This document shows, piece by piece, positions 6,761 to 32,082 of a stretch of DNA of 32,082 bases. A program made the position numbers and the translations under genes. Positions within the stretch are counted from its first letter, which is position 1. The number at the start of each line of letters is the position of its first letter. The notes under the pieces were generated by a model. It did not search any database and had not been told where the DNA came from. It saw nothing but the letters and a program-made list of their open reading frames with translations. The DNA is from Phoronis australis (Eukaryota; Animalia; Phoronida), in NCBI GenBank assembly GCA_002633005.1, contig NMRA01001272.1:1-32082 (forward strand). Reading direction: 5' to 3'.

Positions 6761-8554
6761 TTAGATATCAAGATAACTAAACTCCTTCACATCACCTCCC
6801 TTCTCCAGTACATACACCTTCCCTGGGCCTGATGGACATATGGCTCTAGGCCAGCAGACATCACCCCTCGTGGTGATCACGTGTGCACGTGCAGGGGTCA
6901 ATAGATGGATACAGTGACAGAAGCAGTCGGCCAGGAGAATGTGGCCGAACTGATCCACACACACACAGCGCGGCACACACAGTCCATCACTGAATGTGTG
7001 TATAACGGCCGGCTGTGTGGGGTCAATCACGTACACACGTGGGGGGTAGTCCTGGCTCACCACCACATGTCCAGTGTTCTCATCCACACATATATAGTAC
7101 GGTGAGAACTCACTCAGACCCAGGGAGTGGGCGTCTATTTGATGATGGACCTCACAATCAAAGTCGGTGTACAACACCCGTCCACCCTGTGTATCCGCCA
7201 CTATCAGCTGGTCGGTGTGACATGTAATACACCCCTCATCTTTATACACACCTGGGTAGACCTTCACCAGTTGACCTCTGGCGTCATACTTCACAACACC
7301 GTGAATGTCGTGGTCGGTGATGAAGATCTCACCAAGTCTATTACATGTCACATCAAAAGGGTTCTGCAGTTGGTGCTGGGAGGTGTTTAACGTGAATTTG
7401 AAAGACAAGTTGTTTTTATTATACACCTTGACATTGTGGTTGTAACAGTCCGTTACAACCACCACCCCATCACCCACTGCCAGCCCATTACAACAGCCTC
7501 CCCTCTCCGCCTTAAGCAGACTGCTAAATCTCCGCTCAAGCTGAACATGTTTAACAGCCAGTTGAGGGGTCACACGGTGGACAGGTGATTTACTGGAAAC
7601 TGCAACAACTGAGGCAAAATTTTCAAAAAAAGTGGATGAAATATTTTCGTCTTCCATTTTTCTCATAATATTCACAGCTACATTTGGAACTGCAATTGTC
7701 GCAGGTTGTATTTCAAAGACTGATTTTTCAACCCGCTTCTCGACTTGATCAATATTCAAGTTCTTAAGAAGAGATTCAATCTCATTAAATTGTTGCAGTT
7801 TCTCAGCGTCATGACATGACTCAAGAACATTATTTACATAATCATCTATGCTAGCAAACATTCCCCTGTTAAACTCAGCCTCATCACAAGCAGCTTCTGC
7901 CCGTTTTCTCGCCGTCTCTACTTGTTTTTCCAACTCAGCAATAGCTTTCTCTTCATTAACCTTGACTTGACGAGTGATCTCTTCCAGGAAATCACTGTAT
8001 ACACGTTTTATCTCATTCTTACAAGCATTTTGTTGCTGGGCATAACTTTGTGCAACTTGCTGTCGTTTATTGCGCAACATTTCCCACTGCTGCGTAACAT
8101 CTCGCCAAGGTTTCAACAACTCACGCATCACTTCAATGGCGTCTTTTGCAGCAACGTCTAAATCTTTCAGTTTGTGTTGATTATGACTTGAAGTTGCGCA
8201 TCGTGAACATATGGCCACCTCGCACTGTTCACAGTACATTTCCAAAAGCCGGTCTCCATGAGCTGAACAATGCATTTTATTCATGCTGTCATAATTCGAA
8301 ACAATGTCACAGATACCGGCATGAAAAAAGTTATGTTGGAAGCCAGTGGCACCTTCTTTTGGAACAGGAAATTGTTTTCTGCACATCGGACATGGAAATT
8401 CACCACTTTGCCCCTGTTGTGTCATGTGACTGTTCAAGCAGTCTTCGCAGAATGAGTGAAGGCATGGCAAAACCCTCTGGTCACTGGATCGCTTAAAACA
8501 CACGGGGCACTCTATCAGTCGACGCAGCTGGGCAACTGGATCGTTCGACGCCAT
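6761..8554 (-). CDS. TRIM-NHL E3 ubiquitin ligase (TRIM2/3/71-like architecture), 597 aa, single coding exon
   Basis: C3HC4 RING (CPVC..CLHSFCEDC..CPMC), B-box (CSAH..CEQC..CSRC..HNQH), coiled coil, and NHL repeats (PFDVTCNRLGEIFITD, PRCVCVDQFGHILLAD). The true ATG at 8554 follows a splice acceptor (tttctgtctgcag|GACATG), so the first 10 aa in the ORF track are intronic. AATAAA on the minus strand at ~6726-6731 and ~6597-6602. Confidence 0.93.
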   Translation of the reverse strand: MASNDPVAQLRRLIECPVCFKRSSDQRVLPCLHSFCEDCLNSHMTQQGQSGEFPCPMCRKQFPVPKEGATGFQHNFFHAGICDIVSNYDSMNKMHCSAHGDRLLEMYCEQCEVAICSRCATSSHNQHKLKDLDVAAKDAIEVMRELLKPWRDVTQQWEMLRNKRQQVAQSYAQQQNACKNEIKRVYSDFLEEITRQVKVNEEKAIAELEKQVETARKRAEAACDEAEFNRGMFASIDDYVNNVLESCHDAEKLQQFNEIESLLKNLNIDQVEKRVEKSVFEIQPATIAVPNVAVNIMRKMEDENISSTFFENFASVVAVSSKSPVHRVTPQLAVKHVQLERRFSSLLKAERGGCCNGLAVGDGVVVVTDCYNHNVKVYNKNNLSFKFTLNTSQHQLQNPFDVTCNRLGEIFITDHDIHGVVKYDARGQLVKVYPGVYKDEGCITCHTDQLIVADTQGGRVLYTDFDCEVHHQIDAHSLGLSEFSPYYICVDENTGHVVVSQDYPPRVYVIDPTQPAVIHTFSDGLCVPRCVCVDQFGHILLADCFCHCIHLLTPARAHVITTRGDVCWPRAICPSGPGKVYVLEKGGDVKEFSYLDI

Positions 8555-9600
8555 GTCCTGCAGACAGAAAATAATTATAATCACTCAAGACATATTTCAG
8601 CATCATACCGGTGTTTTTCAATGAACTAACCTTTGATAACCGATAGACATTAAACTGGGGCTGATCATTATCAAAAGTCATTCACTTCGTGGTACATGGA
8701 ACTAAAATAGTCCTAGGCAAAATAATTCAAATTCAACTTCTACGTTAAGTTGTCAGAGCAAAACGTTGACTGCTTTTTGTATTCGTTCTTATTAACATTT
8801 AATTACGACCAGTTTAAGGTTATATAGGACCTTATTGACAAATCTGTACACTTAGCAAAATATCTGTACAACTATAGAACTTAACTCTCAGCGAAAGTAT
8901 ATTTTTTTCTGAAAGCAGAATTTACCTAGAAGTTAGTAACTGACTTTAAACCAACCTCCCATTAATAAGCTCAAGTGATTAATATGCTTTTATCGTAAAA
9001 TTTTGAACAAAAACAAAAACCACGAGATCAATTACATGATTAAATTTAGTATGATATAAATGCTACAAATAAAATCTCAAAATCTTTGCAATAGTTATTT
9101 TCTAAATTATCACTTCCTTTTCATTTGATGCAACTGTGATTTTTTCACAAAAATCCGCCCTATTTTTGACAATCCCTGATGCAAAAGTAGAACATTTTAA
9201 ATCAATACCTAACAGTGCATAAAGTGTAATATCTTTAATTTGCACGTAAATTTGTTCAGTCACTTCTGGGGTACTCTGTGATGTTCCCTGGATTTGAAAA
9301 AAAGTGTTTGAGCTGGAAGGAAATGAACACAAAGTTACAGCTAGCCACCAAGACAACTAGCACTATGATTATGAAGACAAACAGCTTTACACCAAGGCTA
9401 GCTAGTTTGTAATAAGGTTTAGAAAGTAAGCAACTACATAAAATGTGTACTATGCACGGGTACAGGAAAATAGGACAAGAAAACAACATTAACACAAGTT
9501 GTCACAAGTAGGCCTACTAGTTACTTATTAAAGTACAAAATTCATAGGGTCTACCATGACCCATGTAGAAAGACGCAACACATGAAATTCACACTCTTAC

Positions 9601-9900: not shown

Positions 9901-9956
9901 ACGCTGAACAGAGAGCTCGGTCGACACGTCCGACTGCTATCAAATACCTTCGTTGN

Positions 9957-10098
9957 CCTGTTCTGCCATGTGACTGTTCAAGCATTTTTCGCAGAATGAG
10001 TGAAGACATGGCAAAACCCTCTGGTCACTGGAGCGTTCAAAACACACGGGGCACTCTACCAGTCGACGTAGCTGGACAACTGGATCGTTCGACGCCAT
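9957..10098 (-). CDS. Second TRIM-NHL copy: N-terminal RING fragment (47 codons), cut at the N at 9956
   Basis: MASNDPVVQLRRLVECPVCFERSSDQRVLPCLHSFCEKCLNSHMAEQ, with the same acceptor context as copy 1 and no stop or frameshift. It ends exactly at an N, so it is a paralog or alternative haplotype cut by assembly. Confidence 0.8.
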
Positions 10099-11148
10099 GT
10101 CCTGCAGACAGAAAATAATTATAATCACTCAAGACATATTTCGGCATCATACCGGTGTTTTCCAATGAACTAACCTTTGATAACCGATAGACATTAAACT
10201 GGGGCTGATGATTATCAAAAGTCATTCACTTCGTGGTAGATGGAACTAAAATAGTCCTAGGCAAAACAATTCAAATTCAACTTCTACGGTTTTTTGTCAG
10301 AGCAAAACGTTGACTGCTTTTTGTATTCGTTCTTAATAACATTTAATTACGACCAGTTTAAGGTTATATAGGACCTTATTGACAAATCTGTATACTTAGC
10401 AAAATATCTGTACAACTATAGAACTTAACTCTCAGCGAAAGTATATATTTTCTGAAAGCAGAATTTACCTAGAAGTTAGTAACTGACTTTAAACCAACTT
10501 CCCATTAATAAGCTCAAGTGATTAGTATGCTTTTATCGTAAAATTTTGAACAAAAGGGAAGTGCATTCAAAGCAAAACCACGAGATCAATTACATGATTA
10601 AATTTAGTGTGATATAAATGCTACAAATAAAATCTCAAAATCTTTGTAATAGTTATTTTCTAAATTATCAATTCCTTTTCGTTAGATGTAACTTTGATTT
10701 TTTCACTAAAATCAGCCCTTTTTTTGACAGTCCCTGATGCAAAAGTAGAACATTTTAAATCAATGCCTAACAGTGCATAAAGTGTAATATCTTTAATTTG
10801 CACGTAAATTTGTTCAGTCACTTCTGGGGTACTCTGTGATGTTCCTTGGATTTGAAAAAAATGTGTTTGAGTTGGAAGGAAATGAACACAGAGTTACAGC
10901 TAGCCACCAAGACAACTAGCACTATAACATCAAACAGCTTTACACCAACACCAAGGCTAGCTAGTTTGTAATAAGGCTTAGAAAGTAAGCATCTAAATAA
11001 AGTGTTTACTATGCATCGGTACAGGAAAATAGGACAAGAAAACAACATTAACACAAGTTGTCACAAGTAGGCCTACTAGTTACTTATTAAAGTACAAAAT
11101 TAATAGGGCCTACCATGACCCATGTAGAAAGACGCAACACATGAAATT
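9957..11148. repeat. Near-identical duplicate of 8413-9589 (TRIM 5' CDS plus intron)
   Basis: Aligns directly along its whole length; bounded on both sides by Ns. Confidence 0.95.
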
Positions 11149-11854
11149 NNNNNNNNNNNNNNNNNNNNNNNNNNNNNNNNNNNNNNNNNNNNNNNNNNNN
11201 NNNNNNNNNNNNNNNNNNNNNNNNNNNNNNNNNNNNNNNNNNNNNNNNNNNNNNNNNNNNNNNNNNNNNNNNNNNNNNNNNNNNNNNNNNNNNNNNNNNN
11301 NNNNNNNNNNNNNNNNNNNNNNNNNNNNNNNNNNNNNNNNNNNNNNNNNNNNNNNNNNNNNNNNNNNNNNNNNNNNNNNNNNNNNNNNNNNNNNNNNNNN
11401 NNNNNNNNNNNNNNNNNNNNNNNNNNNNNNNNNNNNNNNNNNNNNNNNNNNNNNNNNNNNNNNNNNNNNNNNNNNNNNNNNNNNNNNNNNNNNNNNNNNN
11501 NNNNNNNNNNNNNNNNNNNNNNNNNNNNNNNNNNNNNNNNNNNNNNNNNNNNNNNNNNNNNNNNNNNNNNNNNNNNNNNNNNNNNNNNNNNNNNNNNNNN
11601 NNNNNNNNNNNNNNNNNNNNNNNNNNNNNNNNNNNNNNNNNNNNNNNNNNNNNNNNNNNNNNNNNNNNNNNNNNNNNNNNNNNNNNNNNNNNNNNNNNNN
11701 NNNNNNNNNNNNNNNNNNNNNNNNNNNNNNNNNNNNNNNNNNNNNNNNNNNNNNNNNNNNNNNNNNNNNNNNNNNNNNNNNNNNNNNNNNNNNNNNNNNN
11801 NNNNNNNNNNNNNNNNNNNNNNNNNNNNNNNNNNNNNNNNNNNNNNNNNNNNNN
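11149..11854. other. Assembly gap (706 N)
   Basis: Run of N. Confidence 1.
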
Positions 11855-22152: not shown

Positions 22153-22191
22153 ATGGATGAAGCTACACAAGATTCAGTCACTGCTCCAGAG
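22153..22191 (+). CDS. HDAC6: HDAC6 coding exon 1 (MDEATQDSVTAPE)
   Basis: ATG preceded by an in-frame TGA (22144) and acceptor AGs; donor GAG|GTGAGT; phase 0 matches the next exon. No homology support. Confidence 0.6.
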
Positions 22192-23747: not shown

Positions 23748-24422
23748 GTATTTTATGATTTGATCAAATTTAGACTGTATTTTATGATTTGATCAAATTT
23801 AGACTGTATTTTATGATTTGATCAAATTTAGACTGTATTTTATGATTTGATCAAATTTAGACTGTATTTTATGATTTGATCAAATTTAGACTGTATTTTA
23901 TGATTTGATCAAATTTAGACTGTATTTTATGATTTGATCAAATTTAGACTGTATTTTATGATTTGATCAAATTTAGACTGTATTTTATGATTTGATCAAA
24001 TTTAGACTGTATTTTATGATTTGATCAAATTTAGACTGTATTTTATGATTTGATCAAATTTAGACTGTATTTTATGATTTGATCAAATTTAGACTGTATT
24101 TTATGATTTGATCAAATTTAGACTGTATTTTATGATTTGATCAAATTTAGACTGTATTTTATGATTTGATCAAATTTAGACTGTATTTTATGATTTGATC
24201 AAATTTAGACTGTATTTTATGATTTGATCAAATTTAGACTGTATTTTATGATTTGATCAAATTTAGACTGTATTTTATGATTTGATCAAATTTAGACTGT
24301 ATTTTATGATTTGATCAAATTTAGACTGTATTTTATGATTTGATCAAATTTAGACTGTATTTTATGATTTGATCAAATTTAGACTGTATTTTATGATTTG
24401 ATCAAATTTAGACTGTATTTTA
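23748..24422 (+). repeat. Perfect 29-bp minisatellite, 23 copies plus 8 nt
   Basis: Unit GTATTTTATGATTTGATCAAATTTAGACT; no variant units seen; no spacers. Confidence 0.98.
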
Positions 24423-24553: not shown

Positions 24554-24714
24554 GTGACGGAGAAGAGAAAGATTAAGAAGGACAAGAAAAAGTCACAGTC
24601 TCTTGCTGATGTTAAGAAAAGATGTCGACAGCTTAAAAGTAAAAATGAACAGACATCTGTTATTCAAGGACTAAGAGAATTGTCCGTCGACAAACGCCGT
24701 AACATGTCAAAGAA
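24554..24714 (+). CDS. HDAC6: HDAC6 coding exon 2 (basic N-terminal region)
   Basis: VTEKRKIKKDKKKSQSLADVKKRCRQLKSKNEQTSVIQGLRELSV... resembles the LAEVKKKG...LIVGLQGMDL region of vertebrate HDAC6. ctacag| acceptor, |gtgaga donor, phase 0-2. Confidence 0.8.
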
Positions 24715-25143
24715 GTGAGACATCACGAATTAGGTTCTTTACACATTGTCTGTTTTTACTGTTAACATTAAAATCAAATTTGAATTTCATATAGGCACAT
24801 AGACCATGCGCCTTCTTAATGTCAAGTTGCATTTGGCGACCTAGCAAATGTGCAGATTTCACGAAATAAATAGAACAATTGTGAATCAAAGGTTATAATT
24901 TTGGGAAAATTGTTAGTAGTTTCAAGTTTGCAACTCAACATGAACTTTGAAGGAAACTTAGAGTGAATTATAGTCTGGCTTTGATATTTGCAGTGGCGAT
25001 TTCATGGCGACCTGGAATTTTTCTCTGGTCGCCGAACACAATTTGAGGTCGCATTGACGACATGCAGGTTGCCAAGTCGAACGCTGACCTGGCATTTAAG
25101 TGACAACTGTATTGCTTCAGAGGCTGAAATAAACCTGCCACGA

Positions 25144-25341
25144 CAAGCTACCATTATGCATCCTAAGCAATAATAAACTGCCAGTTATACTCAACCTTCC
25201 ATTTTGCATCCTAAGCAATAATAAACTGCCAGTTATACTCAAGCTACCATTATGCATCCTAAGCAGTAATAAACTGTCAGTTATACTCAAGCTACCACTA
25301 TGCATCCTGAGCAATAAGGAATTGTCAGTTATACTCAAGCT
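25144..25341 (+). repeat. 48-bp minisatellite, ~4 copies
   Basis: Unit CAAGCTACCATTATGCATCCTAAGCAATAATAAACTGCCAGTTATACT. Confidence 0.95.
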
Positions 25342-25959
25342 GATAAATTATTTCTAACATGAGTTTGGAACAAGATTAGCACAATTTCATAGCAGTACAG
25401 TAAACTCTGTTCGATTTCAGACATAATATGGCAGACAAGGGAATTTTTTTTCCTGAGCACATTTTGGCATTGAATTCAATGACTTTCCATGCTCAAATTT
25501 TGTATTACAGCTACCATCAGACAAAGTTTTGCAGAAACTGTTAGAATTCACTGCAACATGAAAAGCCAATGGAAAATGATAAAAACTATTCTGGCAATAG
25601 TTTTTGTCCTACATTTGTGAGATCATACCCCATTAAAATGGGTTTTTGACTGAGGATGGGGTTCTATTGCACATTTAGTTAATACGGTGAAATCTCAACA
25701 GTTACACTTGTTTCCTCCAACAACAGTAAGTGCAGATATCTGTCTTCAAAAATCTTCAAGTTCGGACACTGTAGTTGCAAAATGTGGAAGTGACTTCCGT
25801 AAACTTCTACATGAATAATACTTTGCTTCAGTTGTTTTCGTTCGCTAGTTTTGTATGGTACAGCTGTCACCAAATTGGCATTTTAGTATTAGTAGACGAT
25901 TTACCGATAACAAATTGTGACTACCATGTTATTTCTCATACATGTACATGTATTTACAG

Positions 25960-26101
25960 CACTGGGTTTCTGTATGATAAAAAGATGTCTGACTACAGAT
26001 GTCTCTGGAACCCAGCCTTCCCAGAATGCCCTGAACGACTTCTCCATTCATATGACAGATGTGTGGAATATGGACTGGTGGAGCGATGTGTCCAGATACA
26101 G
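25960..26101 (+). CDS. HDAC6: HDAC6 coding exon 3 (start of catalytic domain 1)
   Basis: TGFLYDKKMSDYRCLWNPAFPECPERLLHSYDRCVEYGLVERCVQIQ; class II HDAC PECPERL motif; AG/GT, phase 2-0. Confidence 0.93.
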
Positions 26102-26163
26102 GTGTGTTTATCCTGATGTTCACTAGTGACCTTCATTTAAAACTCATATTGTAAATTAGGTAA

Positions 26164-27364
26164 ATATAGAGTGTTACAAGGCGAAGTCGTTATCCCCCGT
26201 TATCTAGAGCCCGAATGGATTTTGGAGAATTATTGCCTGAGGTAATAGTTCTACAAAATCCACAAGGGCTCTAGACAAGGGGTACAACGGCTGAGAACAT
26301 GTAACAATCTATTTATACCAAATACTAAACGATAAACTTTGCAATGAATCGATTTACCTTTCTCGACTCACCTCAGCTTTGTAACTACTTTCTATGTCAG
26401 AGGCCCTGGTTGGAGGTCGTAACCTTTTAAGAAAAGCTGAGCTATTTTTGTCAAATAATGCTTTTATTCAAAACCAATCGAAAATTTAAACAAAATATAA
26501 TTAATAAAATGAATTTATAAATTAAGGTTACCAACTATTATAGCTTAAAACACATTTTATCACGCTAAGCTTCGACCGGGAAGCGATCTTCTGCTGAAGT
26601 ACGGGTTACCACTGGTAACTGAGAATAGTTCTTAAGTCAAAGGTGATTTACGAGTGAAAGAACATGAGAGAAAAATTTCACTGAATTAAAATACAGTTTT
26701 TATGGAAATTATTTGTCTTATTTTTCATAGCGTATAAATGTCGGTACAATGACCTTTATTGAACATGCGATTATTGCGCGTGCTCATTTAAGTATTCTAT
26801 TTTCACGCTTGATGACGTCAGCCGCTGAGTGGTGTAGTGGTAAAGTCGGCGACCGAAACTCTTGAGACCCGGGTTCGAAACCCGGCCTCGGTTTCCCGCC
26901 AAAATTTTATCTCACTAGTGAGATAACTTTATGGTTTATTTATACGTTACATTAAATCAACTTTTACCGAAGGAAGAAATACAATGATTCACCACAACGT
27001 TATACTCAAAGACGCCACTGTTACGGGGCAGAAGCGCTTTTTGAGTTTTTTCACGCTTGTTAATACTTTCTTAGAATTTTAGACAGATCTTCTGAGGACA
27101 GAGTGGGGTTTATCACTAGTTTCTGTTATTAAATACTTCTCTATAAGGTCTGAAAGGGCAGTGGCTATAAAATACCTGTGGGGCGGGACAGACTCTGGCT
27201 TGTTAGCACAAGTCACTATTCATATTCTGATGTCCATTGTAATGTCCACTTGAAGCTATTTGCTGGCTAGTTATTGATATGGAAATGTTCATGCGGGCTC
27301 TCTTGAGACCACATGGTTTGAGTCGGTCTCCGGTTTGTGAAGTGTGGCTATATCGTTGGTATAA
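26164..27364. mobile_element. Hairpin-ended non-autonomous element in an HDAC6 intron
   Basis: Imperfect palindrome of ~150 bp at 26166-26312 (ATAGAGTGTTACA..TCTAGAGCCC..TGGATTTTG / CAAAATCCA..GGGCTCTAGA..TGTAACAATCTAT), then TTATACCAA (26313-26321) matched by TTGGTATAA (27356-27364). Confidence 0.55.
26824..26892 (+). pseudogene. tRNA-like sequence (tRNA pseudogene or SINE head)
   Basis: A box TGGTGTAGTGG, T arm CCGGG-TTCGAAA-CCCGG, weak acceptor stem GCTGAG/CTCGGT; no convincing anticodon arm. Confidence 0.6.
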
Positions 27365-27851
27365 GTACAATTGTATATAATTTAACTGTAGTTGCTCGTC
27401 TTATTTTTTATTTGTGAATCGCGAACCCGTGACAGCTGCAAACATGAATTATTTCAAAATCCGCGACATTTTGAGTACAAAACTGGCAGATCTGGCTTCC
27501 TTCCATGTCTTACTTAATGGAAGTAATAATGTATGAGACAGTTATAGACTTTCACGATTGGTCGATTTGTTGCTTTTCAGACCCCAAACTGTGATAATGA
27601 CCTCGCCTCTGCCATTGATCGTAATGCCTTGATATCATTTAATCAATTACCTTCGTTTTGTATTGATAATCGCATTTATTGGCTTGAATGTTCTATTTGT
27701 TCATTAGATTAAGTTCTTAAATCACTTTAAATCTCTTTTATTCTTTTGAAAAGTCATTACACTCTTGAGAAAGAAAAATTGCTTGAATAGTAGTTTCCAT
27801 GTACCACCAGAGGTGTCTTTACTCAACGTTGTCACTTAATATTATTTCCAG

Positions 27852-27989
27852 ATTGAAGCTGTGTGCGAGGACAAGCTGTTAGCACTTCATACGCCAGAGC
27901 ACATTGAACTCATGAAACGAACGCAAGCTATGAATTATGAAGAGCTGCAAGATGCATCTTCAAAATATGATTCTATATTCCTTCATAAT
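27852..27989 (+). CDS. HDAC6: HDAC6 coding exon 4
   Basis: IEAVCEDKLLALHTPEHIELMKRTQAMNYEELQDASSKYDSIFLHN; AG/GT, phase 0-0. Confidence 0.92.
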
Positions 27990-28319
27990 GTAAATATTCC
28001 TTACCATTAAGTTTATGTGCTTGATGTAAAATTCCAGGAACTCATGAGAGATTTCACTGCAGTTCACATTTATAATGTCGACTACATGTTATCAAGTAAT
28101 CGAACCCCTTGGGTTGTTCTACATGCAGTTATTTTCCAAAAGGATTTGCCTAGTTTCCACATAACGCTCTTAAAGAACTGATGAATTGAGAAACAAACCT
28201 TGTTGTGTTCACTAATTTAAAAATGGACTGCTTTTTTGACAGTCAGTACTTCCTTACTGTTGTCGGTATCATCGTTTGCGAATTTCCGTCTCACGGTCTT
28301 TTTATTTCAATTCCTACAG

Positions 28320-28417
28320 AACTCGTATGATGCCGCCCTTCTGGCTGCAGGGGGCGCTGTGCAGCTTGCTGAACAAGTAGTCAGTGGACATTTAAAAAAT
28401 GGCTTGGCTTTGGTCAG
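28320..28417 (+). CDS. HDAC6: HDAC6 coding exon 5
   Basis: NSYDAALLAAGGAVQLAEQVVSGHLKNGLALV(R); phase 0-2. Confidence 0.95.
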
Positions 28418-28694
28418 GTAATAAATACGCTTCTATCTTGATCATGGCTATTCTTCAGTTGTTTCACTAACCAACCCACAGGTATTGCACAACATGACGC
28501 ATTATAGACAGAATTCTGTTGACATGAGTCAAGCAAACAGCAGAGGTAACTTTTACCATGAGAAGATTCTTGATCCAGCTACATTCCATGTCAAATATCC
28601 TCACCTATAATTGGTGCTTGAAGAATTAGTTTTTGGCAGTTTTAGTGATAGAAATAATATGCTGCCCAGTAATAAACATACCTTTTGTTTTCAG

Positions 28695-28796
28695 ACCTCC
28701 TGGCCATCATGCTAATTCTGAACTGTGTGGTTACAGTTATTTTAATAATGTTGCAATCGCTGCCAAGCATGTATTGGACAACATGGGTTTAGAACG
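28695..28796 (+). CDS. HDAC6: HDAC6 coding exon 6 (catalytic His dyad)
   Basis: (R)PPGHHANSELCGYSYFNNVAIAAKHVLDNMGLE(R); phase 2-2. Confidence 0.96.
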
Positions 28797-28861
28797 GTAG
28801 GCCTTGTCTTTTCTCTTTGTCGTGTCTTGTCTTGTATAGTAAACAGCATTATAGCTTACGT

Positions 28862-29178
28862 CACATCTCATTCATGGCATGTTCATAACTGTTGCCCACA
28901 TCTCATTTATGGTGTGTTCATGACTGTTGCCCACATCTCATTCATGGTGTGTTCATGACTGTTGCCCGTATCTCGTTCATAGTACGTTCATGATTGTGGC
29001 ACACATCTCATTCACGGTCTGTTCATGACTGTTCCACACATCTCATTCATGGTGTGTTCATGACTGTTACACACATCTCATTTATGGTGTGTTCATGACT
29101 GTCGCACAAAATCTTATTCACGGTGTGTTCATGACTGTTGCTCACATCTCACTGATGCTGTTTTCACGACTATTGCAC
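28862..29178 (+). repeat. 35-bp minisatellite, ~9 diverged copies
   Basis: Consensus CACATCTCATTCATGGTGTGTTCATGACTGTTGCC. Confidence 0.95.
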
Positions 29179-29394
29179 CCAAATTACACTACTGAGACAG
29201 TTTTATTTTATATGTGCACAGTCAAATTAATCATGTCTCATAAACACACGTTAACTCCTACATGTAGTTTCCTTAATATGTGAAGAATATTCAATTTGGA
29301 AGAAAGTGAATAAAGCTTGTTTATTTGAAGGAAATAACAACCAGTGCCCAGTATTCTGTTCAACCAATAGTGACTCCTCGTGATTCTATTTCAG

Positions 29395-29463
29395 TGTATT
29401 GATCATAGACTGGGATGTTCATCATGGCCAGGCCACTCAACAGATGTTTTACGATGACCCAAG
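29395..29463 (+). CDS. HDAC6: HDAC6 coding exon 7 (Zn ligands, DWDVHHG), ending in a GC donor
   Basis: (R)[22 protein letters not shown](R); donor AAG|GCAAGT; phase 2-2. Confidence 0.95.
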
Positions 29464-29713
29464 GCAAGTCTTGATTAAGTAGTTTTTGATGTCAAGAGCC
29501 CATTTTTGCTTCAATGGTATACTCTTTGTGAACTAATTACAGGAACTGTTCTTTGTCTCCTGCTCAAGATAATCTGGTTGTTTGTTACAAACTTTTTTCA
29601 TCATTTTGTTTGCTTTCAACTTTGTGACCCAAACTAATTGAGACTATATTCAGCAAGAGTTTTAAGGATTGCACTGCACATGATTTTAGTGTACAGTTGT
29701 TATTTTATTACAG

Positions 29714-29840
29714 GGTTCTTTATTTTTCCATTCATCGTTTTGAATATGGGTTTTACTGGCCAAATCTTCGTGAGTCCGACTACGACTACATTGGCGAGGG
29801 AAAAGGTCGTGGCTTTAACATCAATGTTCCTCTTAACACT
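29714..29840 (+). CDS. HDAC6: HDAC6 coding exon 8
   Basis: (R)VLYFSIHRFEYGFYWPNLRESDYDYIGEGKGRGFNINVPLNT; phase 2-0. Confidence 0.96.
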
Positions 29841-29876
29841 GTGAGTAAAGAACAGTTATCTACAGCTTGTCATTGT

Positions 29877-30024
29877 AAACGACTTATTTTTAATATTTCA
29901 CATATAAGCAAAAATGCAATTTCAGGCCTCAAAAGTGGGGCACTATATTAAAATGGGAGGCACCATTTTTGAAGCTCGAAATTGAATTTTTGCCTATGTC
30001 GTTTTAATAACAATAAGTTGGTTT
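29877..30024. repeat. Imperfect palindrome (hairpin element remnant)
   Basis: ATAAGCAAAAATGCAATTTCAGGCCTCAAAAGTGG versus CCATTTTTGAAGCTCGAAATTGAATTTTTGCCTAT; core 29904-29997. Confidence 0.8.
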
Positions 30025-30640
30025 AAATGAAAAAAAATATGGTAATGTACACGTTTATTGGCCCCTGCCTCAGTTTCCTACTAAATGTGTTTTTTGGAGT
30101 CATTAGTACATGACTATTCAATTTGATTCGGGTGTAGTGTGTTCTTGAGCTATACTTGTTGGAGCACACAGCTATCCCTTGTGTGTATATGAATAAACTT
30201 GTGGATCACTGAGCGGACTCTACTGTGTTTCATGACTGTTTGAACTTGTTGAATACTTTAAAATATTTATTCAATTTCTGTTTTCCAGTCTCAGTTAACA
30301 CTTGTTTGTTATTTGTTGAACAATGTTTTTTGTAAATGTAACTACTATAAAAAGCAACATGTTTAATATACTCGAAAACATTAGGAAAGTTACATTTAAT
30401 TGTTGCTAAATCTATTTTACATAATACAAATGATGGTATGTGATCACTTTTGAGGGAGTTGCATAATATTTGGTGCTTCTGTGGCAGTGGTGAAGAACTA
30501 GACCATTCATTGGCTGTTATGTTTCTGATGTCATTGTTTTACGATGTCTTTCATATTTGTGATGTCATTGGTTTGTGTGGACTGGTTAATGGTTGTTCAT
30601 TTGACTCCTAAATTGGTGATGTCATGGATTTTTGTTACAG

Positions 30641-30706
30641 ACTGGGTTGGGTAACAGTGACTATATGGCAATATTCCAACAACTGTTGATGCCTGTCGCC
30701 TACGAG
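30641..30706 (+). CDS. HDAC6: HDAC6 coding exon 9
   Basis: TGLGNSDYMAIFQQLLMPVAYE; ttacag| acceptor and |gtaagt donor; phase 0-0. Confidence 0.95.
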
Positions 30707-30940
30707 GTAAGTATTACATGATATTCTTCATCCTGTCTTTCATTTGAGAGGAAATTTCCACTGTTATATTGATTCAAGGAGACTTGAAGTTAAATATTTC
30801 TTATGCTCTGGAGACCTGCACCAATTGAAATAGTTTTTATTTTTAAGGAACACAATTTGTTCCGTTTGCAGTCAAAGTTGGTAGTTCAAGTACAAATTAA
30901 TTACATTTCTTTGGTTACCATTTCTTGAATATTTTTCCAG

Positions 30941-31000
30941 TTTGCACCACAGATAGTTTTAGTGTCTGCCGGGTACGATGGCGCTGTTGGATGTCCCGAG
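30941..31000 (+). CDS. HDAC6: HDAC6 coding exon 10A (alternative; Glu gatekeeper)
   Basis: FAPQIVLVSAGYDGAVGCPE; tttttccag| acceptor and |gtattt donor; 60 nt, phase 0-0. Confidence 0.92.
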
Positions 31001-31027
31001 GTATTTGAATGTCTGCTGTGTTGTCAT

Positions 31028-31493
31028 GAGGGGAACAGGGAGCATTTACATGGTCACAGTTTTTGACAAATGTAAAACAGAACTTTCTGCTGAATATCGT
31101 TTTTGCTGCTAAAATGTGAATGTTTAAGAAATTGTACTCTGTTACTCAGACGCTTGTTAGAGAAGTTGAGGTCCAGACATTCTAATTTCTGCATTTCACT
31201 GTCCGACTGATTTTCCTATTGTTTGCCACTCAGTAAATGCAGAGCCTGACACAGTGGGTGCACTGAAATGTCTGGAATTGACCTCTATCAGTGCGCAAGC
31301 GATTATGTAGTGAACTAGTTGACCTTCCACACAGCCAGTTTGCACACACCAGTGTGTCTAATTGTCTCTGAGAATGTATAACATTCCAAATTTATTGCTT
31401 CCTGAACCACCAAGTTAATTCAGTGCCCTCATTACCTTGTTGTCCGACCTTTGACCTCACCATGTGACCATGTCTATGTCCTCTGTTCTCGTC
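31028..31493 (+). promoter_or_regulatory. Intronic long-range RNA duplex (31028-31058 with 31463-31493) enclosing a hairpin (31151-31301)
   Basis: Gapless 31-position pairing with 24 Watson-Crick and 3 G-U pairs; regulatory role inferred from its position. Confidence 0.7.
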
Positions 31494-31554
31494 GCATTCT
31501 TTCTTATTAGCAGTAGTTTGTTACTCGTAACGAAAACTTTGTTGTTCTGTTCAG

Positions 31555-31614
31555 TTTCAGCCTCAAGTGGTTCTTGTGTCTGCTGGCTTTGATTCAGCAA
31601 TTGGCTGCCATAAA
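31555..31614 (+). CDS. HDAC6: HDAC6 coding exon 10B (alternative; Lys gatekeeper)
   Basis: FQPQVVLVSAGFDSAIGCHK; ttctgttcag| acceptor and |gtaaat donor; 60 nt, phase 0-0. No further exon recognised before the window ends. Confidence 0.9.
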
Positions 31615-32082
31615 GTAAATATTTTCTTATTTACTTTTTATGATAAATTTCTTTTTTTCTCCTTTTCATCAACTTTGTTGTATTAACATTTAGTTAGTCC
31701 ATTGTCCTTACACTGTGACATCAAGTCTGAAAAGACCTCTCTCGTCACGGCAACTAGCTTTTCCTACCTGGTCATTTCTGGAGTGGTAAATTACCTTGGG
31801 ATCTGTAGATTTTGGCAAACAGGGCATGCAAATGTAAAAGTTTTTGCCGTGTGGTGCCTTCTTACTGTTAGTCAGCACCCATGTCAGCTTTCGATTCATG
31901 AACTTTTGAAACAGGAGTTTAAGGTGATTTGTTATTTGTACCTGTACATGACTGACAGATATTTAGTAAATTATTATCTTTAGTTATAAAGACAATTCCT
32001 ATATCAGTTGCTACAGAGGTTAATTTTTTTGGAAATAATGTTTGTTGTCAAAATGGACCTTACACAGTTTAGTTCACTGATC

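Follow-up and report, generated by a model that had tools for sequence, protein, structure and literature searches.

In a single HDAC6 gene of the phoronid Phoronis australis, the part that encodes the catalytic domain CD1 carries two homologous 60-nt exons in tandem, the upstream one (exon A) ending in Glu and the downstream one (exon B) in Lys at the position known as the substrate gatekeeper. Both exons are included in mRNA, exon B as seen from nine joint reads and exon A from four exon-bounded reads, and they are very probably an alternative and ancient exon pair. We propose that their splicing as alternatives would allow one gene to place either Glu or Lys at the CD1 gatekeeper; this is a real, ancient splice switch at a tested specificity residue, apparently undescribed so far. 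The gene was found in positions 1 to 32,082 of contig NMRA01001272.1, a stretch of 32,082 nucleotides termed here “the window”. The two exons are as follows.

30941..31000, forward strand: alternative exon A, FAPQIVLVSAGYDGAVGCPE, Glu gatekeeper, with exon-bounded RNA depth in runs X2 and X3
31555..31614, forward strand: alternative exon B, FQPQVVLVSAGFDSAIGCHK, Lys gatekeeper preceded by an unusual Cys-His, with nine joint reads from the upstream exon U

Each exon is preceded by AG and followed by GT and encodes 20 residues of HDAC6 CD1, including a conserved Asp which we take to be a zinc binder; the coordinates, splice sites and translations given in the initial annotation were all recovered. 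Thirteen of the 20 residues are identical between A and B, and 8 of the 13 codons for these shared residues differ silently, the same figures as reported earlier. At the nucleotide level, the copies agree at 36 of 60 positions, with unrelated flanks (27/80 upstream and 23/80 downstream), and thus an assembly duplicate was ruled out. When the window was scanned with A (BLOSUM62, ungapped, 62,394 segments of 60 nt on both strands), exon B scored 76 and the runner-up 19, so the likeness is not a matter of chance. Being tandem, homologous, equal in length and phase and flanked by intact splice sites, the exons have the makeup of a mutually exclusive pair. Their sequences show that one exon was duplicated long ago and that both copies have stayed under constraint at the protein level; this was the view of the initial annotation, and the low nucleotide identity, silent codon differences and dissimilar flanks bear it out.

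The host gene was reconstructed upstream of the pair, and the borders of the seven exons from 25960 to 30706 were set from RNA joints together with splice sites.

22153-22191: candidate for the first coding exon, with 13 codons in phase 0, preceding the exon at 24554
24554..24714, forward strand: coding exon for the HDAC6 N-terminus, containing a basic motif; joint 24714 to 25960, GT..AG, 12 reads, in frame
25960..26101, forward strand: CD1 exon with the L1 loop; RNA joints and loop comparison
27852..27989, forward strand: CD1 exon; RNA joint 26101 to 27852, 17 reads, open frame
28320..28417, forward strand: CD1 exon; AG/GT ends, open frame, tblastn
28695..28796, forward strand: CD1 exon with the catalytic His-His motif; RNA joint to 29395, 5 reads
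29395..29463, forward strand: CD1 exon bearing the DxH zinc motif; GC-AG intron after it, RNA joint 10 reads
29714..29840, forward strand: CD1 exon, Pfam Hist_deacetyl positions 167-204; RNA joint to 30641, 11 reads
30641..30706, forward strand: constitutive exon U, upstream of A and B, with a phase-0 donor; RNA joints

These seven exons form one open HDAC domain of 247 residues that ends just before the pair, with its best identity (60%) to scallop HDAC6 CD1 and with the His-His, DxH and conserved Gly-x-Asp motifs of a CD1-type domain. Its L1 loop has five residues from Trp to the E-x-P-x-R motif, as in HDAC6 CD1, against seven in the HDAC10 rows, and has Phe where mammalian CD1 also has it. 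The loop comparison found no HDAC10-type two-residue insertion (3-10 helix) in the window loop, in agreement with the initial annotation. Compared with homologues, the loop after His-His is shorter by one residue, with Gly-Tyr retained. Further upstream, the basic motif of the exon at 24554..24714 resembles the pre-CD1 motif of HDAC6 homologues and was not found in the one HDAC10 representative tested. The window ends 468 nt past exon B, and CD2 and ZnF-UBP would lie beyond it.

Several other features of the window were recorded. The GC-AG intron of the HDAC6 gene, 29464-29713, is the one backed by the 10 joint reads listed above. Other introns contain minisatellites at 23748-24422 (29 nt × 23.3 copies, 100% match), 25144-25341 (48 nt × 4.1) and 28862-29176 (35 nt × 9.0), and the intron sequence at about 26161-26940 is an interspersed repeat covered by RNA reads of many diverged copies on both strands. 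Outside the HDAC6 gene, a 607-codon frame on the reverse strand (6764-8584) with RING, B-box and NHL matches represents a TRIM-NHL-type gene. Near it, about 1.2 kb is present twice in tandem with 93% identity (8413-9589 and 9957-11148), and the second copy region carries another TRIM RING start (9943-10128, reverse strand). This copy has a lone N (9956) on one side and an N gap (11149-11854) on the other, and could be either a genuine partial duplication or an artefact of assembly.

Exon use was examined in three stranded raw-read runs carrying the same species label (X1, X2 and X3), about 18-19% of each. At several exon positions the runs and the window disagree, which indicates that the RNA came from other individuals or a close relative. 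A fourth run under this label, of contigs (X4), yielded nothing on the pair, which is no evidence of absence. The region 30601-31680 is covered by 26 reads (X1 11, X2 7, X3 8; small counts, in which mates may be counted twice), with depth only on U, A and B. The joint from 30706 to 31555, proposed as a check in the initial annotation, is present in nine reads (X1 7, X2 1, X3 1) that pass from U to B with GT..AG ends and bypass A, and RNA joints delimit the upstream exon as 30641-30706. Past B, fourteen reads continue into GEMKVEPACF, the segment that normally follows in CD1, encoded outside the window; joined to U on one side and running on into CD1 on the other, exon B thus belongs to the same gene and domain, as had been assumed. 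Exon A is covered by four exon-bounded reads, two in X2, two in X3 and none in X1. Exon B, with 19 reads, was therefore more often read in these samples than A, and the difference between X1 (11 B to 0 A) and X2 plus X3 (8 to 4) was not significant (Fisher p 0.09).

Among joints with at least three reads, the 26 reads gave none from A to B, and none from U to A or from A to the downstream exon. The read depth is informative on the connection of A. In X2, 201 bases fall in the bin that holds 32 exon bases, so all seven reads touch U, both A reads included. In X3, six of the eight reads are on B and two on A; the sole U to B read has 20 bases on U, and the two reads covering all of U must thus be the A reads. 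From this depth arithmetic we infer that A is joined to U as well. The last A bin of X2 holds five bases, which fits one read continuing with G like the downstream exon and not into B.

The alternative use of both exons suggested by the initial annotation is supported by RNA on each of them, by the absence of a listed A to B joint and by the isoform pairs of other species described below (14 of 16 protostome clusters). Against strict exclusivity stand 33 database records from other species, Lineus, Crassostrea, Mytilus and Scylla RefSeq isoforms among them, that contain both copies back to back with a 20-residue spacing. Such records may stem from predictor chaining or leaky splicing, and co-inclusion may also be real; gene predictors frequently chain tandem exons. 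In the alignment of the both-exon form, the invariant Gly-x-Asp column falls on the first copy in all rows. If A and B were independent cassettes, with both-exon and no-exon forms as a regular output, these records would be expected, as would the Scylla and Danaus isoform records that show no segment at all, and with in-frame exons and a 554-nt intron neither decay nor crowding would remove co-inclusion. However, none of the 26 reads shows the A to B joint while nine skip A, and both copies occur in 0 of 17 full-length protostome proteins sourced from Logan (16 Glu and 1 Lys, five of them from ticks, which may lack the Lys exon), and we give independent cassettes a small chance. There is scarcely any chance that one of the exons is a pseudoexon, an assembly duplicate or a part of another gene or of CD2. 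Exon A has neither X1 reads nor a listed joint, as a pseudoexon might, but the 36/60 identity, the unrelated flanks, the exon-bounded RNA depth on both exons, the continuity of B with U and with CD1, and the conservation of the pair across phyla all argue against this reading. For alternative splicing itself, a short intron, a frame shift and non-canonical sites were each rejected as the cause of exclusivity, given the 554 nt between A and B, exon lengths that are multiples of three, and GT-AG ends; regulated splice-site competition is therefore our default guess. The best RNA stem (-16.9 kcal/mol) covers the A donor and pairs 30993-31003 with 31792-31802, and 4 of 20 shuffles were as good; an 11-bp inverted repeat within the A-B intron (31048-31058 with 31463-31473, -16.7) was likewise equalled by 4 of 20 shuffles.

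Comparison with other animals confirms that the pair is real, and also revises its scope, since what had been claimed for this locus is a trait common to lophotrochozoans and arthropods. Among the 120 homologues listed, the gatekeeper is Glu in 56, Lys in 41, both in tandem in 15 and other or unparsed in 8. We then looked up isoforms in 20 named clusters, picked for size and spread (16 protostome and 4 invertebrate deuterostome), with up to 15 members of each listed. The homologue check advised for both peptides was positive in 14 of the 16 protostome clusters, which hold Glu and Lys isoforms of equal length with differences confined to the 20 residues: the molluscs Haliotis, Patella, Biomphalaria, Mizuhopecten, Crassostrea, Mercenaria and Mytilus, the nemerteans Lineus and Tubulanus, the crab Scylla, and the insects Anopheles, Hermetia, Thrips and Danaus. 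The Scaptodrosophila and Rhipicephalus clusters have the Glu form only among the members listed, and Glu-only records account for 2 of 2 drosophilid and 15 of 24 tick records listed. In deuterostomes, Asterias rubens has Lys and Glu isoforms with four differences, all inside the 20 residues, and Branchiostoma lanceolatum has Lys and Met isoforms with nine differences, spread over a longer exon (residues 499-535); the members listed of two sea urchin clusters have Lys only. The Glu exon of the starfish has a near-zero score and lineage-specific residues common to its own Lys partner, and its orthology with the protostome Glu exon was not demonstrable.

Every one of the 35 Glu/Lys tandem records has the Glu exon ahead of the Lys exon, as in the window, and none has the reverse order. 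A profile of positions 1-17 alone, trained on the other group, gave the Glu exon the higher rank in 12 of 14 lophotrochozoan species and in 11 of 11 arthropod species, which points to a single duplication before the parting of lophotrochozoans and arthropods. Within species, the Glu-Lys identity over these positions (12.2/17) exceeds the cross-species identity of the same type (11.7 and 10.9), a pattern suggesting that the copies have to some extent exchanged sequence or drifted together. Glu and Lys copies differ at 5-10 residues, the gatekeeper among them, and the Glu exon is the better conserved (mean pairwise identity 14.45/20 vs. 13.13/20). The window pair itself does not sort by type, as its profile scores (A -5.4, B -1.3) run in the wrong direction. 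At position 18, exon B has Cys, the residue of 66 of 67 distinct protostome Glu segments, whereas all 62 distinct protostome Lys segments have Asp; no other Lys segment lacks this Asp in the 236 Lys-bearing proteins of the 534 fetched. Exon B may descend from the ancient Lys exon, with part of it overwritten by A, or may be a Lys exon derived anew from a Glu copy, two origins between which 20 residues are too few to choose.

For the phylogeny, a tree was built from 52 hand-chosen rows, with the alternative segment excluded and with no nematode, cnidarian or sponge row. The window CD1 is placed among the protostome CD1 rows (98/90) without close kin, and hence the gene is not an HDAC10 orthologue. 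HDAC10 and vertebrate HDAC6 CD1 form one clade (98/94) that excludes all invertebrate CD1 rows, and because of this grouping, protostomes with the pair probably have no true HDAC10. A single class IIb gene is reported for Drosophila and for Anopheles (PMC7288346), and in the supplement of that study, the C. elegans proteins named HDAC10 (NP_496910) and HDAC6 (NP_500787, first domain) have Glu and Leu, respectively, at the gatekeeper. The neogastropods Babylonia areolata and Nucella lapillus have two HDAC6 records each, one Lys-type and one Glu-type, seemingly on one contig, with identities of 75% (Lys-Lys), 79% (Glu-Glu) and 67-71% (cross). They are candidates for isoforms split into two genes; the tree does not resolve these four rows. 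Separation of splice isoforms after gene duplication is a described process, with vertebrate cases in the sections consulted of PMC4494069.

That the last residue of the segment is the gatekeeper, as the initial annotation had it, agrees with PDB alignments and with the passages used of two reports (PMC5454378 and the preprint 10.64898/2026.05.22.727066). Residues 1-20 of exon A align to zebrafish HDAC10 chain positions 255-274, with Glu at 274, and both exons align to zebrafish HDAC6 CD1. According to the passages used of PMC5454378, E274 of HDAC10 and K330 of HDAC6 CD1 are corresponding gatekeepers for cationic and anionic substrates: Glu274 favours N8-acetylspermidine and Lys330 gives the preference for anionic substrates. 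The E274L change lowered activity on N8-acetylspermidine 20-fold and raised that on acetyl-lysine about 100-fold, deletion of the L1 helix cut polyamine activity 15-fold and left a bifunctional enzyme, and the gatekeeper is termed necessary, not sufficient (PMC5454378). In the preprint, HDAC6 CD1 deacetylates free acetyl-lysine and K330E inhibits deacetylation, a result that in the passages used concerns acetyl-lysine, not polyamines (10.64898/2026.05.22.727066).

On the analogy of these vertebrate enzymes, we consider it likely that the exon pair switches CD1 between acetyl-polyamines (Glu) and free or C-terminal acetyl-lysine (Lys). The proposed mechanism would start from two intact and transcribed exons, B being joined directly to U with A skipped and A, by the depth arithmetic, also joined to U, in an arrangement of Glu then Lys kept across lophotrochozoans and arthropods. 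Through the Lys330 preference for anionic substrates, the inhibition of acetyl-lysine hydrolysis by K330E and the preference of Glu274 for N8-acetylspermidine, the choice of exon would then set the substrate, and the Glu form would act as a bifunctional or modest polyamine deacetylase in place of HDAC10. The vertebrate mutants suggest free or C-terminal acetyl-lysine as a substrate of the Lys form and not of the Glu form. Lacking the L1 insertion, the latter would lean to acetyl-polyamines, though probably with less strictness than HDAC10. The gene would thus most likely work like a combined HDAC6-CD1/HDAC10, yet is no HDAC10, and the single class IIb gene of Drosophila and Anopheles, in the part of PMC7288346 consulted, would make the Glu form the natural candidate for polyamine deacetylation.

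Two other functions of the pair were weighed against this substrate swap. The Lys form might be an acetyl-lysine deacetylase that Glu silences or retunes, toward internal peptide lysines or a scaffold role, with no part in polyamine metabolism. The inhibition of zebrafish CD1 by K330E on acetyl-lysine fits such an on/off switch (10.64898/2026.05.22.727066, passages used), as do the missing L1 insertion and the Cys in place of Asp ahead of the gatekeeper in the Glu form. Nevertheless, the Glu exon is the better conserved and the sole form seen in drosophilid and tick records, which fits a positive function, and Glu is also reached in HDAC10, in a starfish isoform and in C. elegans HDAC10; we regard the on/off switch as unlikely, with a real but minor chance of being right. 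The chance is slight that the isoforms are near-equivalent in substrates and the pair is kept for stability, partner binding or splicing regulation. The 5-10 residues by which the copies differ, beyond the last alone, leave room for such roles, but across phyla each exon type keeps its own end residue, Glu or Lys, with drift at the remaining positions, and single changes at the gatekeeper strongly shift the specificity of vertebrate enzymes in the passages used of both reports (PMC5454378; 10.64898/2026.05.22.727066). Our literature search found no published enzyme assays of Glu/Lys isoform pairs.

Beyond the preferred substrate swap, we put forward a conjecture that is speculative and on balance doubtful. 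The Glu/Lys switch would be an ancestral bilaterian device for making two deacetylases from one gene, in which the Glu form is the polyamine enzyme of insects and molluscs and the Lys form recycles acetyl-lysine; HDAC10 and HDAC6 would each have received one exon, and neogastropods would have repeated the process. Such inheritance fits the tree, the starfish pair, the neogastropod paralogues and the process described in the part of PMC4494069 consulted. Just as possibly, Glu came to the gatekeeper by convergence at a specificity hot spot and not by exon inheritance.

What HDAC6 CD1 does is a long-standing question. The splice choice reverses the charge at the one residue known to steer the specificity of both CD1 and HDAC10, and its spread across lophotrochozoans and arthropods makes it a natural and cheap two-enzyme experiment. 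The switch also offers a testable origin of the HDAC6/HDAC10 split. The single class IIb gene of flies and mosquitoes leaves their polyamine-deacetylating enzyme an open question, and Drosophila HDAC6, of the Glu form only in the records examined, may be a poor model of human CD1, which has Lys. Glu and Lys isoforms are already annotated in RefSeq with the gatekeeper swap unremarked, and the literature, judged mainly from abstracts and with few subscription papers, gave no account of an HDAC6 exon pair or of a gatekeeper swap.

Among known systems, the closest are the annotated pairs of Mizuhopecten (XP_021357756/7), Haliotis rufescens (XP_048253052/3), Anopheles gambiae (XP_061502723/34) and Hermetia (XP_037919448/9), which show the same 20-residue Glu/Lys substitution as the window; their Lys exons and those of other annotated protostomes keep Asp at position 18, whereas the window Lys exon does not. 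Vertebrate HDAC6 CD1 (zebrafish K330, human K353) is the same domain, with a Lys that matches exon B, an L1 loop of equal length with Phe, Gly-Tyr after His-His and an N-terminal basic motif. It differs in having Gly-Asp-Pro-Lys where exon B has Gly-Cys-His-Lys, and in having no Glu in 101 mostly vertebrate rows (93 Lys, 4 Met and 4 Leu); some Sinocyclocheilus HDAC6 records have Met as the CD1 gatekeeper. Vertebrate HDAC10 has its Glu gatekeeper in common with exon A only, and differs in the two-residue L1 insertion that the window CD1 does not have, in Asp where exon A has Cys two residues ahead of Glu, and in Phe where the window has Tyr in the loop after His-His. Finally, the systems described in the part of PMC4494069 consulted also have tandem homologous exons used alternatively, of which paralogues may each keep one, as the Babylonia and Nucella records may illustrate. 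HDAC is absent from the main text of that study, and the charge reversal at a tested specificity residue is particular to the HDAC6 pair.
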